Positions 1-8,920 of a stretch of DNA of 20,000 bases are shown piece by piece. The DNA is taken from NCBI GenBank assembly GCA_013239625.1, contig MU053556.1:113003-133002 (forward strand), written 5' to 3'. Below the pieces are notes generated by a model. It was not told where the DNA came from. It ran no database searches and was given only the letters and a program-made list of their open reading frames with translations. The number at the start of each line of letters is the position of its first letter. Position 1 is the first letter of the stretch. The stretch is from Lama guanicoe. Taxonomy: Eukaryota. Both the position numbers and the translations under genes were made by a program.

Positions 1-464
1 TCGGTTTGTAAATACTCACTTTGTAACTTGTCATTTAAAATTGTAATTATTAAGTACTTGTTCCAGAATGCTTTCTTTTCTGTTTTTAAAAGTTTGTTTC
101 CAAGATTATCAAAATGGTCATAGCTAAGTAGTACACGTGGGGAGACAGATGGAGAGAGGTAGTGTGGTTCATGTACAAACTGTGAGCAGTTTCATGGCTG
201 CCTTTAGGCTGGAGAAGCCACAGAAGAGTCCAGGAAAGACCAGGGATAGCTTTGTATGCACTTGAAAGCCAGCTTTCCTGCCTTTATGGAGAAGCCTGGT
301 GCGCGTGGCAGGTAGATGATCAAGGTCCGTTGGAGGTCATTGGCTGGACACAGCACTGTGTCTGTGAGAAGTGGAGACCAGTGCCATGGGAAATGCTTGG
401 TGGCAGGAACACTGCAGGGGAGCTGGGTAGCCTATGCGTTAAGGATTTTCCAGTCCTGGGAATT

Positions 465-665
465 GGAAGTTCAGACTCTGCATTCAGATCTGAGTTTGAA
501 TTCATCCTCTCTTGTTTACTGGTCCTCAGACTTTTGCCAAGTTATATACCCTCTTTGAACTCCTGTTTTCTTGTCTCTCAAAATAGGAGAATTACGCCCT
601 GCTGCTAGAGTGTTTGATCAGGGTAAATGATTTGTGTCTGTAACATGCCACGTACAGTCACAAGC
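465..665 (+). mobile_element. MIR SINE fragment (ancient, degenerate)
   Basis: Resembles the MIR core and 3' part: tctgagtttgaattc...ttgccaagttatataccctctttgaactcctgttttcttgtctctcaaaatagg...taaatgatttgtgtctgtaacatgc. Boundaries approximate. Confidence 0.65.
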
Positions 666-982
666 TCAGTGAGAAATGGGCTGTCGCCTCTTCTTCTGCA
701 ACTCAGTGCTTGACAAGACATGGGAGAAAGCCAGTCCCTAATTTGTGTGTGATGCAAGAAGGAACAAAATTAATGTCTTGCCTATCCCAGCAGTATTCTT
801 ACTCCTTAGCTTCATTTACTTCTTTCCTCCTTTCCTTTCCCCTTTCCCCTCCTCCACCAAAAGAGCCTGAGACTCTCTGAGAACACTAGATTCAAATCAC
901 TTTAAAGGTTGGCTCATCCTCATGAAATGATAGTAACATAAAAAAAATCTGTACACATCCCAGAATTCATTGTATTTGATTT

Positions 983-1023
983 ACACACACACACGTGCAC
1001 ACACACACACGCACACACACACA
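983..1023. repeat. (CA)n microsatellite, interrupted
   Basis: acacacacacacgtgcacacacacacacgcacacacacaca is directly visible. Confidence 0.95.
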
Positions 1024-1734
1024 ATCAGGGTACCTCCCACTTGCTGAGGGAGGAGGACCACTTTTTCTGAGTTTTCATTCAGTGAGCGTGAGAATAAAGT
1101 CTCTTATGTAGACATTCACCCGGCTTCGTGCATGGTGTTTTCAATTGGATTTCTGCTTTGTGGCCATAGAAATATTCTCCTAATAGAACACAGTAAGTGG
1201 AGACATAGACATTTTGCTGAGATATTGGTGTCATCATATTTGAGTTGGAATGGGCTTGAGACAGCAGAGTCATAACTTTTTATGGGTGAGAATCCATTAA
1301 AGTGTAACTTGGACAAAGACCTGGGTCTTCTGCCATCGTGTCCAAGCAGATGAAGAGGCAAATGGTTGTGGGATGGCAGGGATCCTTCTTGCTTGGGTTC
1401 CAGGGTCTTGCTAGTTTTCATTGCTCAGCTGCCTTTAGTTTATATCCATGTGGCCTCTCATGGGAAGGTCACTCTGTCCTTATAGACTGAGTTTCTAATC
1501 AGCAAAAAGCTCTGGATCCACTCATATTTCTCAGAGTTTTTCTGCTGACCTGCTGACACTTTATATAAATGAGACCTAAGAAACTACTGGATATAAAATC
1601 CTTACTGTTATCACTTGCCCTCGATTTCCATAGGAATGGGGTGCTGTCTCAGGCTGTCTAAGGCTATATTTGAACAATGATAGGGTGTTAGGCTGTGCTA
1701 CTGGACCCTCCACAGTCGAATGGGATTTCCACCT

Positions 1735-1900
1735 TAGTTTTTAGAATCAGGCAGACGCTTTCAAATCTTGCCTTTACCAGTTACTAGCTTTGTGACCTTG
1801 GGGAAGAAACTGCACTTATTTGTGTCCAATTTTCTTTATATGTAAATAGGTTCAGTATTTATTTTAATGTTTTTGTTATAGAATTGAATGAGCTAATTCC
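1735..1900 (+). mobile_element. MIR SINE fragment
   Basis: ttagaatcaggcagac...ttcaaatcttgcctttaccagttactagctttgtgaccttgggg...tgtaaatagg...gaattgaatgagctaa resembles the MIR consensus. Boundaries approximate. Confidence 0.75.
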
Positions 1901-2404
1901 CTCATTTATACCTAAAATACTGATCGTGTGGTTCAATGGTGGTGCCTTGGTAGTTGATTACTAAGGAACTCGGCAGTGAGAATAGGGGTGGGGGACCCCT
2001 GGATCATAGAGCTTATATTCCAGGATATGCTTGTAAAAGACTGGATGTGCAGTGGATTTTTAGTAAATATCCATTCCCTTCCTAATCCGCATTGATTGTT
2101 TATAAATCTTTATATTAATATATGAGCAATTTTTATTGCAATTTAAATCTCTTTGTAGTATTTAATATATGTAGCTATAACAAAAATACGTGAAATAAAA
2201 TGATTTGATTTTTTTCAATAAGCAAAACAAAAAAATAGAAAAGAAAAAATGTTTTGAAAGAGTAGAAATAATTTTATTTCCGTGGAATCAATTCCCAAGA
2301 TAGGTTTTTTGGTTGTGTTGTCAAACAGCAAATAAAATTGATAGGTTGTGACATAATGGAAATGAGGAAACAGTGGAGACATACTACCTCCAATACAGTC
2401 ATTT

Positions 2405-2944
2405 TGTTATCAAGTCCAATCTCGTTCTGCTTACTGCATGACAGGCCAATAAATCGGGAGATGAGCTGTTGGAGCAAGGAATAGTGACTTTATTTGAAAA
2501 GTTGGCAGACCCAGAAGATGGCATACTGTTATCCTGGGGAACCCTCTTCCCCAAGTCAGAATTCCGTCTCCTTTTATACTAAAAAGAGGTGGCGGTGTGG
2601 TTGGTTGTTGCAAACTTCTTGCTGTACGAATTGTTTGTCCTTGGAATCCTTTGTTCTTGCAGCTGTCCATGTGGATCAAATCATGGTGCCCCTGAAAAAC
2701 CTCCAAAAAAAACCCAAAGTTTATTCTCTGTTTTACAACTTGTCATCCCTATATAAGTGAAGAAGAGTTAACAGTCTTAAAGATCAGAGCCCGGAGAATA
2801 GGCTCTCCTGGATATTTCAGGCTAAAGGCAACTTTCTTTTACAAAAGGTGCAGAGCTAGCAAGTCTGAGCCTAGAAACAGGGCACACGGTTAAAGCCCAA
2901 GGAACACTTCTAACATGGAGTCAAATTTTTTCTTTTCTATTACA
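2405..2944 (-). mobile_element. ERV1-type solo LTR (540 bp) with 4-bp TSD ATTT
   Basis: TG...CA termini (tgttat at 2405, ttaca ending at 2944). Identical ATTT flanks at 2401-2404 and 2945-2948. Minus-strand TATAAAAG near 2571-2578, followed by AATAAA near 2488-2493. Confidence 0.85.
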
Positions 2945-4099
2945 ATTTCTTTTTCCACCTCATAAATAATTTTAGTAAGAAACATGAACAATTTTTTTAT
3001 TTTTGGTTCTTAATAACGGATAAGTGGGCCAACTACATTTTTGTGATCAGGGATGCTGTTCGGGCCTTGGGGTCACAGCAAACTCTTGTTGGGGGTGGTC
3101 AAACCTGCAACATGTCTGATGCCCCGTAAGTGTTGGTGAGGGTCCCCCTAACCAGGGGCTGCCTTCAGGAACCAGCATATGGGCATTGACCTCTGGAGAC
3201 CTCTTTTTCAGCTGCAGGAAATTTTTTCAGATACTGTGATTGAAAAATCATTCCAGCTGGGGATAATTAGGGAATAAAGGAAGAGGAAAAGGGCTTGGTG
3301 TAGAGTAGAAGAGAGGGACAGAAGATCAGAGAGCCTGGGGAATAGGCAGCTGGGCCTCGGGAAAGAGAGGAGCAGAGGTGGGGAGGGGCACGACCCTGGA
3401 ACCAGCTCCTGCACCGTCCCCGCACCCAAGCCACACAGCTCTTAATTGGTCCAGGATGCTCTCCTGTCTGGATGTCACCCTGGGCAGAACCATGAGAATC
3501 GAATGTAAGGGGTGGGCAGCACTCACATAGGGGTCACTGAGGACTTTGATCAAGTCCACAGTGCCTTTTCTGGTCATGTGTCTTCCCTTGCCCTTTATCT
3601 TAGGATCTGAAAAGCAGGAGCAAGGAACTCATGGAGAGATCCAGGAAGACATCTGACTGTGTAAGATACGACAGTCACAGCGACACGGGGAATGAAGACC
3701 CTTGCAGCAAAGTAAAATAACTTCACAACTATTGCATCAGAGCTGCAGGTGTGAGAGAGCCTAAGCCTGTCTCAGAGTGCAGGGGACAAAAGAAAAGGAA
3801 TGATTAAATTACCACTGACAATTGAAATTTTATTAAATAGCCTGCTCCTGTTAATTGTATCAATTGATTATGTGTAGGTGTATTTCTGTGAGCATTTATA
3901 TGTTCAAACAACCCCACCAGCCCCTCTTGCCCACATCGGGGATGGGCTTTCTCAAGCAGAGTGCCCCACCTGCTTGGGTGGGCCACACTGCGGGTCCTCG
4001 CCTGGGGCCGGGCTGCTGCTGGGCATTGAGTCCCCGAGGCCCGGCCTGTGAGACACGGCCCCAAAGCTCTTGACTGAGGGCCTCCTTTTCCTCCTGCAG

Positions 4100-4223
4100 C
4101 GTAAGAATGCTGGTGACTCAGTTAGAAGCATGCTTCGAAGCTGTCCGTGTCCTTGCCATCCAGAAGCAGAGCCTGGAAGCTTCCAAATTTCTCCAGAATG
4201 CGGTTTACTTTCACCTTCGACAG
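4100..4223 (+). pseudogene. TRAPPC9: Frameshifted, diverged copy of an internal TRAPPC9 (NIBP, TRAPPII subunit) coding exon
   Basis: Acceptor cctccttttcctcctgcag (AG at 4098-4099) and donor CAG|gtgagt (GT at 4224-4225). Translates as RKNAG, then in a shifted frame [37 protein letters not shown]. Recalled human TRAPPC9 is [42 protein letters not shown] (42 codons = 126 nt). This exon is 124 nt, implying a 2-nt deletion at the G-V codons (~4113-4114). Confidence 0.85.
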
Positions 4224-4864
4224 GTGAGTGTATGTCCACTTACAAGTGGAGGAATTACTGCAGTTTTTCTGAAACTTACTCACCACTAGTCCATCTGATT
4301 TTCCTGTGCTAGGATTCAGTATGACATGCTAAAAATTCTGGAGTCAGATCTTGAATCCCTGATGAAGAGGATTATTTATTTTATTTCTTTATATGATAGT
4401 ATTTTACTTTCAAAATTCAGAGTTTTCTGTTCTTTGAGGAATTTTTTCGGGGGTTGGAGAAACAACTTTGCTCTTACCATCTTTGGGACCTGTTTCTATA
4501 TGCCTCTCACATGTCTTGTCACTTGTGAGGCAGTTCCATTTGTGACCCTGTGCGGGTTGTTCATGTTATAAAATATAAAGCCTGTAAAAGTACAGTCCCT
4601 CTTACTTCGAAGATATTCCACAAATACTACTTAAATCTGGGTATGGTTTTAAGCATACAGAATCATTAGAACATGTACTTGCAGGTTGCTAGTGCAAAAT
4701 CCCCAAATCAATAGTCTAGCTCAACATCTAAAATCTTTCTAATCTTCCTTGGATTTGTGTACATAAGTGAAGCAGTTTGCCAAGAACTCAAGACCAGGTT
4801 TAGAAAACAGGCTGGTGTAGCTCAGCAGGTCCTCAGAAGCTGATGCTCTGCCAGAGGGCGGGGC

Positions 4865-5340
4865 CGAGGGGAGAGGGCGTGTCCTGCCCTCCCTGAGCTG
4901 ACAGTTTCATGGTAAAGACCTTCACCAGGTGAAGAACTGGGAGTTTCTTCTAAGAAGAGTGGGTTTGAAAAGAGTCCTAAGAGCACGGGAGTGACACAAT
5001 CCCATTTGTCTCAAGTAGGGGAGAGCGGCTGTGGGGCCACTTGGGAGACTCGTGAGCCCAGGTGGGCAGTGTTGGTGGCTTCCCCTTGAGCTGTGGGACG
5101 GTCAGTGGGTAAAAGTGAACAGAATGAAGGCATGTTTAGATGGTTAAAAGGAAAGGATGAATGCTGTCTGTGAAGGTAGGATGGAGTAAGGCCCAGGTTT
5201 CTGTGTGGATTAATGAGGTAAATGATTGTCATGCTGTGCTCTGAGGAGAGAAACTGCAGAGGGAGTTCTGGGGGGGAACTAAAGAGTTCAGCTCTGGGTA
5301 AAGTGAAAGGCTGTTCGATGTGTGATCTGGGAGCTCTGGT
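4865..5340 (-). mobile_element. L2 LINE fragments (very degenerate)
   Basis: Purine-rich text resembling antisense L2, e.g. tcctgccctccctgagctgacagttt and gagttcagctctgggtaaagtgaaaggctg. Boundaries approximate. Confidence 0.45.
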
Positions 5341-6339
5341 GAGAGCCAGTAGTGTGTAGGGGGAGAGGAGAGAGACTTTCAAATCATTTTGTCTTGTGAA
5401 CATACAAATAAGTATGAGTAATGACAGACTTAACACCTCTATATTCTGGATTTAAAGCCCTGTAAACTTTTGCTATATTGACTGCAGAGGTTCTTAATTT
5501 TTTTTTAATAGAAATAAAATAAATGGAAACTAAATAGTGTATTTAATGAACATCTAAGAGTTGATGTTTGTCCTTGTATGTATTTTGATACCTCATCTGT
5601 TTATAAACATAATCTACAAAAAGTTAGCTTGCTTAGCATAAGAGTTAAAAAGAGGGACGGGGCACACAATGTTGGGGGTTGAGGCTGATCTTCTTGGGCA
5701 AATTTTGTAGGCTTTCTGTGCCTTAGTTGCATCTTCTGTGACTGCCCCCGGCCCCCTCATCACAGCTGATTTCCTAGACTAGATGTTGGGAGGGAGGCTG
5801 CTGAAAGGAGTAAGAAGTGGCAACTGTTAGGGATACTGAAGAGAGAGACAAAAACAGATTAAGCCGATAAACTGAGTACAAATACCCTCAAAAGAGAAAG
5901 AATCCTGCAGTGTTTTGAGCCCCTTAGCATAAGGGAAACAAGATCAAGTGGACCCAAACTGTTAGAATGTGAGTATTGTGGGTGGGAGGGTGTCAGAAAA
6001 TGGTTGAGAAAAGGCCTTTTGGTTTCCCTTGACGTTTCCAGTAAGGATGGGACGCAGAAGCGAAAGCCCCCCTGCTTCACAGCGGAAGCTGCTGTTTTGT
6101 GCGAAACTGACCAAAGTTTGGAAACCAGTCATCAGTGGTGCTGGCAAATGAAGAGACTTCTGGATTGGGTGGGGCACTTGCTGTGACTTCCAGGTGACCT
6201 GCTGGCTGGGGGCTGTGAGGCGGACAGTAGGTTTGCAGGGTGGCCCGGGCATGATCCCTGGCTCTAAGGCTGCTGTTCTGATTAGCAGACCTTGGCACCC
6301 ACAGTCCTAATGGGGCAGCTCGTGATGTGGCCTGGGACA

Positions 6340-6660
6340 CCTGCCATGCTGAGGGGGAGAAGAGGGCTCCCCTGAGTTGGTGTCCCTGCGGAGAGTGGAA
6401 ACGTCCTCCTGCAGGGGAGGAAGATCCTCTGTACAGGTGGCCGAATGCATAGGCAAGACCAGCCTGAGCACGGAGGGTTTGGGGAGCTGGAAGTCATACA
6501 GTGGCCCGAACAGCCTTGTTCCTGAGAGACTGGAGGGAAAAGATGCTGAAAAAGGCAGGCTAGTGTCTGACCCTGTGGTGGGTTATGAGTGACAGGAAAG
6601 GACTGGCCAGGCAGGCACAAGAGAACCCTGTGAGCGTCCCAACTGGGGCGTCTCGCTGGA
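6340..6660 (-). mobile_element. Probable L2 fragment
   Basis: ggaagatcctctgtacaggtgg...gcataggcaagacc...gatgctgaaaaaggcaggctagtgtctgaccctgtgg loosely resembles antisense L2. Confidence 0.35.
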
Positions 6661-6679
6661 GGGAGTAGCAGAGTTATAG

Positions 6680-6760
6680 ACTTTTCAACTTATTAGCTGT
6701 GTGACTTTGAGCAATATCACCCCACTTCTCTCTCTATATATCTTGATGTGTAAAGTGACA
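6680..6760 (+). mobile_element. MIR core fragment
   Basis: acttattagctgtgtgactttgagcaa is a close match to the MIR core (acttactagctgtgtgaccttgggcaag). Confidence 0.7.
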
Positions 6761-7467
6761 GAGTGACCAGCTCGTGTCATCAGAAGGCTTAGTTTAGCTC
6801 TGATCCTCTGTGTCCAGTCCTGTCAGTGCTGCCCTGCAAGGTTCTGCAGCGGCTGCACTTACCCTGAGATGGGAGGGTGTAGAGGGACATTGTAGCACAC
6901 GAGGACAGGAAGGGACTGCTTTAGAAGCAGACATGTAGCCTGCTGAAGCTGCAGACCTGCAGGCAGTTTGGTTGATGGTCGTGGAGAGGACTTTGGAGGC
7001 CTTAGCGTCGTCTTAAGACTTGTTTTCCCTTGGGGACCGGATTTGCCTTTGCAGAATAATATTGAAGATTTGGGCTTCTGGCAAAGCTGTTTTCAGAGAT
7101 GGGTATATACGTAACATATCGTATAAAACAAAATGATTTATTTAACTTGTGGGACTTTGCAGCTGTTGGGAACAGCTCTGTTGGCCTGGTCTCCACGGAG
7201 GACACTAGGGGTCAGCAGAGCGTGCGTTAGGGCAGGCAGCCCGCAGTGCTGCTGCGGGGGGTTCTCCCCAGTAGGGCGCTCTGCTGAGTTGACTCTTCTC
7301 TGAGTTTGGATGCCAGATGAGCAGACAGCAAAGTAATGAGTTCTGGTGGGATTGTATAATGACAGGTAGAAAGAGGAACCCGTAGTTTTTGGGACTAGAA
7401 CAGGCTTCTGGTTCCTGAACCCGTGTGTTCCATGACAGAATTGATGAGTTTTGTCTATTCTGGGATT

Positions 7468-7956
7468 TGATTGAAATAAACGTTCAGCCTAAAAGTTAAG
7501 AGTTATGTTTTATTTGGCGGGAAGACTCGAGCCGGGATGACAGCCTCTCAGATCACTCTGAGGGACTACTCCCAAGGTGTATGGGAGGATCTAGGATATA
7601 TAGGAGCTTTACAACAAAGACCAGGTAGTTGGAACAATAAAACATTGCTTGTTATCTAAAGAAAGCCAGGTGTCTCAGGTTCAAGAATTTAGTGCTTTTC
7701 TATGTATGGGAGGAAGCAAACATTTTGGTCATTGAATTCCTTCCTTCGACAAGCACCTAGCTATCTAGGGCCAGTGTCCTGTCGTTTCTTATTCTGAGTC
7801 CGCTCAGAGGGCACCACTGTGAGTGGCTAAGAGGTTGGGCTGCAGGCATGTCCTCGCTGGAGGGTGGCAGCAGCCGCTGATGACTTGGTTTCAGCATTCT
7901 TTGTTTACTGACATGGTTGCAGTATTTTCATTCACATTGTAGTACTTTCATTCACA
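7468..7956 (-). repeat. 3' LTR of the provirus
   Basis: About 88-89% identical to 14058-14549. On the minus strand it starts TGTGAATG, with AATAAA near 7509-7514. The left terminus is uncertain by ~3 nt. Confidence 0.92.
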
Positions 7957-7970
7957 GTGCTCCCCCTTGG
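7957..7970 (-). promoter_or_regulatory. Polypurine tract (PPT)
   Basis: Minus-strand CCAAGGGGGAGCAC immediately precedes the TG of the 3' LTR. Confidence 0.75.
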
Positions 7971-8218
7971 TCCTAAATTCGACCAATATTTTGAGAGACA
8001 TTTCATGACCAATTTTGTCCCACGGTGCTAGGATGGCTCATTCCTAGTTCAGGTGAAGAATCTTCTGAACTGCCATTCAAGGTGTTAGGTGTTTTTATCA
8101 GGCCCTGTTCATACTAAAAGTTCTCTGGATCTCCTGTCTTACTAGTGTATTATGATCCAGGAAATGTTCACCCTTCGTTGGTCATTCCCATACCTAGAAT
8201 CACACTATAACAATTATT

Positions 8219-8389
8219 TTATGCAGGGCTATACATTTTATCTATTTCTTCAAGATGTTTAGCCATCATCAATCTTGTAGGCCTAGTTACACATAGGGAA
8301 ATGTAACAGACAACAATTTTATAAAATAGACAGGATATAAGTAATACAGCTAGTAACGTTAATAAAGTCATGAGTAAGAATTTAATAGC
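8219..8389 (-). pseudogene. env: ERV env remnant: TM membrane anchor plus cytoplasmic tail
   Basis: Minus-strand translation AIKFLLMTLLTLLAVLLISCLFYKIVVCYISLCVTRPTRLMMAKHLEEIDKMYSPA* is a hydrophobic span plus short tail, ~250 bp before the PPT, where env is expected to end. Confidence 0.7.
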
Positions 8390-8577
8390 CGAGAAGTTAT
8401 ATTTTTGGGTTAAAATTTTTCTTGTGTTTCTAATTGAGTTTGAGTTACCTTATGAGAAATTTCATATTTATGGGCAGGGTCAGAGCAGGTATTATTTGGC
8501 CAGGTGAGGTCACCCACCTTGTAAGATCAACAGTGGCCTAAAGAGAACTATAATTTCCTTTTTAGAAGAACGTTTCT

Positions 8578-8649
8578 GAGGGCTATCTAGTTAGAGCCTT
8601 TGAGTAGGGAAACCCACCAAAGTAACACAGAAGTACTAGATATAGGAGG
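8578..8649 (-). pseudogene. env: ERV env remnant: SU N-terminal segment
   Basis: Minus-strand PPISSTSVLLWWVSLLKGSN*IAL resembles the recalled class I env motif LPxSSxSGLPWWVSPLQGSDW, which follows the CWxC motif. Confidence 0.55.
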
Positions 8650-8769
8650 GTCAGCTGTTCAGATGTCGTCTTCTTCTCATCCTGGCCTGGTAGCTTTTAC
8701 TCCATTTGGGCATTATTTTAAGGTGAGCAGTGCTCTATAGGCCAGTGCACTGTAGGGTCTGTTTCTGAT

Positions 8770-8920
8770 CTGAAATGAATCTGAAAGTCCGTTTCCTTCA
8801 GCCTTGGTTTGTATGGTCTAGTTAAGAGTACCTGATAAAGGGTCCTTCCATTCAGGATGGAGACAGTTCTTTAAGTCATGCCTGTTCCAGTATGTATAAT
8901 CCCCTGGCTGCAGGTCATGG
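8770..8920 (-). pseudogene. pol: ERV pol remnant: integrase C-terminal GPY/F region, frameshifted
   Basis: Minus-strand HDLQPGDYTYWNRHDLKNCLHPEWK, then after a frameshift YQVLLTRPYKPRLKETDFQIH. This matches the class I integrase C-terminal pattern HxxQPGDxVxxK...LxPxWKGPYxVLLTxPxAxKxxGxxxWIH. Confidence 0.8.

Follow-up and report, generated by a model that had tools for sequence, protein, structure and literature searches.

Results

A TRAPPC9 Segment with Its Introns in the Window

The window analysed here, a stretch of 20,000 nucleotides from the guanaco (Lama guanicoe), was found to be colinear over its entire length with introns 6 and 7 of the TRAPPC9 gene at 67–78% identity, this colinearity being broken by retroviral and other repeats. 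Such an alignment of the flanks with the true TRAPPC9 introns had been proposed as a check in the original prediction. The following features were recognized in it:

1..4099, plus strand: copy of the 3′ part of TRAPPC9 intron 6, with a solo LTR inserted (alignment to the parent)
2405..2944, no strand assigned: solo-LTR-like insertion of 540 bp, TG...CA ends, 4-bp target duplication ATTT (sequence, empty site in the parent)
3604..3802, plus strand: cryptic exon from intron 6 (RNA-contig joints, alignment)
4100..4223, plus strand: frameshifted copy of TRAPPC9 exon 7, 124 nt, AG/GT kept (BLASTN, alignment)
4107..4223, plus strand: family-specific ATG (ACG in the parent), placed in frame with TRAPPC9 codons 342–378 by the 2-nt deletion (alignment, start of NCBI "TRAPPC9-like" models)
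4224..19713, plus strand: copy of the 5′ half of TRAPPC9 intron 7, with a provirus and other repeats (alignment to the parent)
7468..14549, no strand assigned: decayed endogenous provirus, two LTRs, flanked by a 4-bp target duplication (self-BLAST, empty site in the parent)
14551..14605, plus strand: second cryptic exon, 55 nt, at the 3′ junction of the provirus (sequence, tblastn, NCBI models)

Positions 5–2338 and 2945–7465 of the window aligned with positions 31,058,275–31,051,389 of the parent at 77%, and the blocks of the intron 7 copy with positions 31,051,390–31,047,308 at 67–78%. The insertion at 2405–2944 has no counterpart in the parent and is common to the family of copies described below; it would correspond to an LTR, as judged from its ends and target duplication and not from a repeat library. 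It provides two splice donors, one at 2552 (in an NCBI model) and another at 2847 (in an RNA joint), and a tblastn search with the Bactrian camel model P0008 matched it at 2418–2552. A second solo-LTR-like insert, 70.6% alike and in the opposite orientation, was detected in the same tandem array (L043, 2410–2892), near the head-to-tail junction of contig C1175, on which the window lies. The cryptic exon from intron 6 has its acceptor at 3604 and a donor at 3748 that is kept in the window copy, and its other donor, at 3802, has mutated to AT in the window copy; 17 of 20 copies have GT at this site and the parent has GC.

The two LTRs of the provirus (7467–7957 and 14060–14550 by self-BLAST) are 88.6% identical, at a K2P distance of 0.12, and its longest stop-free stretch is 108 codons. 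Its 5′ junction was spanned by all 40 scored matches; the provirus was thus in place before the amplification of the family and was multiplied passively with the duplicon. At its 3′ end, the provirus contributes the acceptor CAG (14548–14550) of the second cryptic exon, which has an ATG at 14558 and a GT at 14606. P0008 matched this region too, at 14536–14562; in several NCBI models from alpaca and camels, this exon is joined to exon 8, and models P0157, P0161, P0162, P0164, P0165, P0168, and P0171 start with a peptide homologous to it.

Further downstream, an insertion missing from the corresponding parental position (16849–17479) is probably another LTR-type element; it is 70% similar to a repeat that precedes exon 2 of the parent (31,095,596–31,094,963). 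The region 18375–20000 contains a 306-N gap and, after it, an AT-rich repeat that matches the parent region at many places and that we take to be LINE-like. The window comprises the final 20 kb of C1175 (133,002 nt). Measured in parent sequence, the contig stops about 4 kb short of the junction found in its upstream unit and about 6.5 kb short of exon 8; such an end is to be expected where a block in many copies is difficult to assemble.

The Exon 7 Copy and Its Intact Parent

The exon-like sequence at 4100–4223 follows a pyrimidine tract and CTGCAG, and GTGAGT comes directly after it. With its flanks, it was identical to the parent at 187 of 228 aligned positions (BLASTN E-value of 2e-57), as anticipated for a frame-switched, AG/GT-bounded TRAPPC9 exon of 124 nt. 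In comparison with the guanaco's own parental exon, two nucleotides are deleted from the G-run of codon 341 and 10 residues are replaced (Y337R, I343T, E344Q, V349F, K350E, R360Q, M362L, E366K, I374F, and N375H). Both the deletion and the number of replacements were exactly as predicted, but the camelid parent has V, not the I assumed, at position 349.

The intact exon 7 of 126 nt (42 codons), whose presence beside the 124-nt copy the original prediction had asked to verify, was found on the minus strand of contig C55226 (31,054,740–31,054,615) of the same genome. It corresponds to residues 337–378 of the 1148-aa TRAPPC9 and matches named vertebrate TRAPPC9 proteins at 95–100% (804 of 806 candidates passed). 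Around it, 14 exon-sized tblastn blocks were found in order, covering residues 1–867 in the 200 kb of C55226 examined, and a genome search with the PF08626 profile at a stricter filter returned a single parent exon, on C55226. A weak histone-fold ORF (E-value of 8.5e-4), presumably CHRAC1, lies head to head upstream of the parental gene. TRAPPC9, CHRAC1, KCNK9, and AGO2 occur together in 18 publications.

The parental exon has the sequence ACG at the position of the ATG at 4107, which was present in all the 20 exon 7 copies that we aligned, these being the best-scoring loci, by likeness to the window copy, of at least 69. The length of 124 nt and the same 2-nt gap were also found in 20 of 20; as these copies are about 10% apart, an error of sequencing or assembly was ruled out as the source of the deletion, in agreement with the earlier argument that the changes were too many for it. 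A processed retrocopy was discarded as well, as introns are retained and exons unjoined. The reading as a DNA-level, unprocessed duplicate that is not the functional exon was thus borne out by colinear introns 6 and 7 and an intact parent. On the other hand, the intactness of the splice sites, presented as notable in that prediction, does not imply function: the exon 7 donor GT is kept in 15 of the 20 copies and lost in 5, as drift allows. The 36-aa peptide of the window, too short for such searches, had no match in Pfam or PDB.

Copy Number, Extent of the Duplicon, and Its Neighbour

A 401-nt query for exon 7 gave 121 candidates, and 40 of 40 scored matched at 86–100%. With a protein query, 118 matches were obtained (150 scored of 159 candidates), which, split by query position, include at least 69 paralogous exon 7 matches and at least 47 paralogous exon 8 matches besides the parent. 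Exon 2 yielded 116 candidates, with 39 paralogs among 40 scored, the matches being mostly 10 or about 22 nt short, and exon 8 yielded 53 candidates, with 40 paralogous matches. All these copy counts are lower bounds. No exon 8 match identical to that of alpaca model P0003 was found in the assembly, the best one being 90% over residues 48–89. Most copies are about 89–90% alike, at the edge of the 90% conventionally used for segmental duplications.

Exon 9 was detected only in the parent, as a single copy in the genome. Two CpG-rich stretches lie upstream of parent exon 2, one at 31.093 Mb (4.5 kb upstream), within the duplicon, and the other at 31.098–31.099 Mb (9.7 kb upstream), found once. 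Since exon 2, the nearer CpG-rich stretch, and exon 8 are multi-copy and exon 9 and the farther stretch are single, the duplicated unit, as delimited by these sequence matches, extends from intron 8 back to about 7 kb before exon 2. Contig C1175 carries two such units head to tail, with a junction near 76.3 kb and an exon 7 period of 58.8 kb; the first of them ends in intron 7, without exon 8, and continues there into sequence that precedes exon 2. Exon 6, with a stop codon, lies just upstream of the window. The neighbouring exons had been sought in vain within the window, and exon 6 is indeed outside it, but the small duplication offered as one explanation does not hold, nor does the proposal of a small paralogous segment: the window contains one of at least 69 copies of a duplicon of about 60 kb.

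The same data bear on the proposals of a single small duplicate, of a tandem dead exon inside TRAPPC9, or, if no other copy existed, of gene loss or exon skipping. With at least 69 copies in the genome, the window on C1175, and one intact exon 7 in the parent on C55226, these possibilities have a practically negligible probability.

The copies form multi-kb blocks, both in tandem (about 59 kb) and dispersed, mostly on small contigs, and fragments of unlinked genes are joined in them, as in mosaic duplicons. The second gene fragment is an exon of an O-fucosyltransferase (O-FucT), a candidate POFUT2-type gene by the name used in a GWAS table discussed below. Of its 33 matches, 4 correspond to a multi-exon locus, 1 to the best-scoring single-exon locus, and 28 to others, 18 of which are located on 14 contigs that also harbour copies of TRAPPC9; the two fragments, where measured (eight cases), are divergently oriented and 24–45 kb apart. 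No O-FucT exon was found on the parent contig.

Clusters of copies were also observed on larger scaffolds (G000:C6476 at 42.9–43.4 Mb, C2129 at 7.6–7.8 Mb, C7845 at 6.1 Mb, C5183 at 3.6–3.7 Mb, and C1686 at 1.2 Mb), which are useful anchors for the chromosome placement of the family. A near-identical sister of the window copy (L002, on G000:C4132), 98.5% alike over 3.1 kb and 99.6% at the exon, is either a recent duplication or the other haplotype.

Divergence of the Copies

In the introns, the K2P distance was 0.246 between parent and copies (0.212 without CpG) and 0.102 between copies, and the distance between copies in exon 7 was 0.100. The CpG observed/expected ratio was 0.28 in the copy and 0.47 in the parent. 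The tree shows a branch of 0.19 to the parent, followed by a star-like burst with tips of about 0.04–0.05. With a mammalian rate of about 2.2e-9 per site per year, the founder would date roughly to 55 My ago and the burst to 23 My ago; a distance of 0.25 to the parent would allow a founder older than the camelid lineage. The split between camels and South American camelids is placed at 11–25 My in PMC13751797. A burst before or near this split is consistent with these dates and with the models found in four camelid species.

Selection on the New Reading Frame

The combination of frameshift and new ATG suggests another reading, in which the copies would be a young camelid core-duplicon gene family encoding a short protein (TRAPPC9 residues 342–450, exons 7 and 8), with amplification favoured by selection on some of them; such a protein, expressed from LTR-derived or cryptic upstream exons, could compete with full-length TRAPPC9 for partners. 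We consider this improbable. Selection was analysed in the 39 codons that follow the new ATG, for 17 independent copies left after dropping the near-sisters L002, L008, and L013. In this frame, 42 nonsynonymous, 23 synonymous, and 4 stop changes were distinct, and at the lineage level 5 stop changes were observed for about 5 expected. The difference rate per lineage was 0.054 in exon 7 and 0.055 in the introns. A codon maximum likelihood analysis of the 39 codons in all 20 copies gave an omega of 0.82, not different from 1 in a likelihood ratio test of low power (p = 0.38; p = 0.065 in a codon model without transition/transversion parameter). As exon 7 changes at the intron rate, with omega not different from 1 and stops as frequent as expected, this former coding sequence drifts neutrally, as observed for exon 7 only, in 20 of at least 69 copies. 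Together with the loss of the donor in 5 of the 20, these results speak against a coding family.

In favour of it, the ATG is present in 20 of 20 copies (17 of 17 independent ones, P ~0.06, 0.057) and no exon 7 indel was found in the 17, the exon being the longest stretch free of indels within 2.7 kb (P of 0.007 at the overall intron rate, and 0.07–0.10 allowing for query ascertainment or homopolymers). The absence of indels and the retention of the ATG are weak hints against neutrality. For exon 8, which is common to most of the protein models described below, 21 of 39 match lengths were modal and 13 of 39 showed non-triplet offsets, in a span that takes in some intron.

Family-Level Transcription and Splicing

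Four of the 24 listed RNA runs were aligned to positions 1–7400 of the window at 82% likeness, one of which (X24) aligned 0 reads and provides no test. A joint between 3802 and 4100 was detected at a depth of 1912 in X1 (reproductive-system RNA) and of 24 in X4. Two further joints, both GT..AG, were 3748 to 4100 in X1 and 2847 to 3604 in X4, the latter starting from the solo LTR that the parent lacks. Loose contig ends were also found at 4101 and exactly at 4223 in X1 and X4. None of these GT-AG joints was present among those listed for X11. Spliced joints were thus seen in two of the four runs, whose contigs carry neither strand nor level and may include DNA. Depth over exon 7 was excluded as evidence of paralog expression, as parent mRNA also passes the 82% threshold. 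The joints are a family-level observation, the aligned contigs being mostly less than 95% alike to the window copy, which has lost the donor at 3802 and keeps the sites at 2847, 3604, 3748, 4100, and 4223. These joints into the exon 7 acceptor and the loose ends at 4223 would be expected from the short-protein family outlined above, but the cryptic exon of the window copy contains two short, out-of-frame upstream ATGs and the upstream unit of C1175 lacks exon 8.

RNA coverage across the family, with splicing, and the tandem units of about 59 kb on mostly small contigs would also fit a non-coding role, either as a repeat unit of camelid heterochromatic arms or as a source of lncRNA or small RNA touching TRAPPC9 expression, and similar pseudogene-rich blocks are described for repeat-rich alpaca regions in PMC13751797. 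However, DNA or pre-mRNA may account for the coverage of all 30 bins observed in three runs, and an identity of about 82% with the exon of the parent leaves little room for long perfect pairing. A role of this kind is very unlikely, more so than the short-protein family.

"TRAPPC9-Like" Protein Models in Camelids

Among 116 protein matches, 60 were camelid models annotated as "TRAPPC9-like", from Vicugna pacos, Camelus dromedarius, C. bactrianus, and C. ferus. The parental EEEKI motif was absent from all 60 and present in 54 of the 56 others, and an entry without organism name (P0140) has the family form of this region. By these sequence features, the NCBI and UniRef camelid "TRAPPC9-like" proteins correspond to the pseudogene family described here. 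The restriction of the family to camelids is weakly indicated, within the scope of annotated proteins of 74–238 aa.

Residues 1–39 of alpaca model P0003 are identical to the frame of the window from 4107, and model P0004 aligns to TRAPPC9 342–450 at 75%. These similarities and the existence of models in alpaca, dromedary, Bactrian, and wild camel would be compatible with a short coding gene, but the ends of the models are not conserved: the 60 vary widely in start, end, and length, the exon 7 ATG motif lies inside 23, and the 9 that begin at this ATG range from 89 to 149 aa. A Pfam search of the short models, which are too short for it, gave no match. In the Bactrian camel model P0001/P0002/P0008, two exon 7 copies of adjacent tandem units are strung through an LTR-derived exon, a predicted read-through across these units.

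Discussion

The segment in the window is very probably one member of a family of unprocessed TRAPPC9 pseudogenes, which arose by an ancient partial duplication, decayed and received retroviral insertions as a founder, expanded in a burst as a mosaic duplicon, and is now neutral and partly spliced. The features of unprocessed pseudogenes are all present: a parent intact to residue 867, colinear introns, disabling lesions (the 2-nt deletion in 20 of 20 copies, the stop in exon 6, and the truncation before exon 9), and a neutrally evolving exon 7. From the features of a core-duplicon coding family, spliced transcription was found at the family level, and a conserved frame under selection was not.

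The history began with a single DNA-level duplication of the 5′ part of TRAPPC9, which covered the stretch delimited above, between a point about 7 kb before exon 2 and intron 8. The founder would then have decayed for a long time as low-copy sequence, gaining the states shared by the copies: the 2-nt deletion in exon 7, the change of ACG to ATG, the loss of one codon in exon 8, the solo LTR, the provirus, and the joining of the O-fucosyltransferase exon. A burst of segmental duplication, both in tandem and dispersed, would have produced many dozens of copies before or around the time when camels and llamas separated, plausibly through non-allelic recombination in repeat-rich DNA, with pericentromeric or short-arm regions as the probable candidate location. 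The copies now drift neutrally, and the joints indicate that some are transcribed, with exons of LTR-derived or cryptic origin spliced to exon 7. The family gives no working TRAPPII subunit and, at most, non-coding RNA or short unconserved open frames. Given the spliced RNA, a subset of copies may have a regulatory or peptide role. More speculative, and improbable, is a new short gene (TRAPPC9 342–450 under LTR-derived 5′ exons) that seeded a camelid-specific core-duplicon family, translated from a subset of copies in reproductive tissue and modulating TRAPPII or NF-kB signalling, or a copy number effect behind the growth and body-measure associations credited to "TRAPPC9" in dromedaries.

Dromedary GWAS have reported "TRAPPC9, POFUT2" at chr14:31,079,211 and 31,079,246, two SNPs with genes assigned within 50 kb by BLAST (PMC10357240), and TRAPPC9 at 14:31,371,259 in a table of PMC8027435, from which, as in a table row of the review PMC12351130, it is taken as a growth gene. 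In the guanaco assembly, TRAPPC9 and O-FucT are paired only in the duplicon, so that these "TRAPPC9" signals may mark copies of the pseudogene, or variants between paralogs, instead of TRAPPC9 itself. The parent lies at 31.04–31.09 Mb of its contig, numerically like the chr14 position of 31.08 Mb, a likeness between two assemblies that we consider fortuitous, since the search for O-FucT exons gave no match on the parent contig. The family would concern GWAS candidates, collapsed or mis-mapped reads, and about 60 spurious or doubtful "TRAPPC9-like" protein entries, and it shows that a dosage-sensitive gene, single-copy in mammals, has left a fragment of about 60 kb in dozens of copies, amounting to several megabases, across camelid genomes.

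No description of a camelid TRAPPC9 paralog or pseudogene family was found in the open literature searched, in line with the original prediction, which had not foreseen that NCBI automatic annotation contains many "TRAPPC9-like" camelid proteins. These are automatic single predictions, for which no analysis of origin, copy number, or selection was found. No mention of TRAPPC9 was found in passages of the alpaca Y paper (PMC7830431) and of the preprint on copy number variation in South American camelids (10.1101/2025.08.28.672513).

Compared with the parental TRAPPC9 (NIBP; Pfam PF08626), the copies have the same splice sites and are colinear in exon 7 and introns 6 and 7 at about 77–82%, but comprise only coding exons 2–8, with exons 2, 6, and 7 broken, and are multi-copy and neutrally drifting. 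The closest camelid case is that of the repetitive blocks rich in pseudogenes on alpaca chromosomes 11, 17, and 36, with fragments of ATF5, FMN2, NEK10, ACTB, and ABHD17A, as described in PMC13751797. As in the TRAPPC9 family, pieces of unrelated genes are present in them in many copies within repeat-rich DNA, a pattern interpreted in that article as segmental duplication and decay. Neither TRAPPC9 nor POFUT2 appears in the text of that article or in its text supplement, and the alpaca blocks are reported there as reduced in camels, whereas the TRAPPC9 family has models in both lineages.

Among primates, mosaic segmental duplications gave rise to core-duplicon families such as NPIP/morpheus, TBC1D3, and GOLGA8. 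By analogy, the camelid family would be of a similar type, with intron-containing gene fragments in a mosaic, amplified in one lineage and transcribed with new exons. In contrast to the primate families, no signal of positive or purifying selection was detected in the 39 codons tested in the TRAPPC9 copies, and the family is older and more diverged (10% between copies), offering a non-primate case of mosaic duplicon formation and of new exons gained from LTRs.
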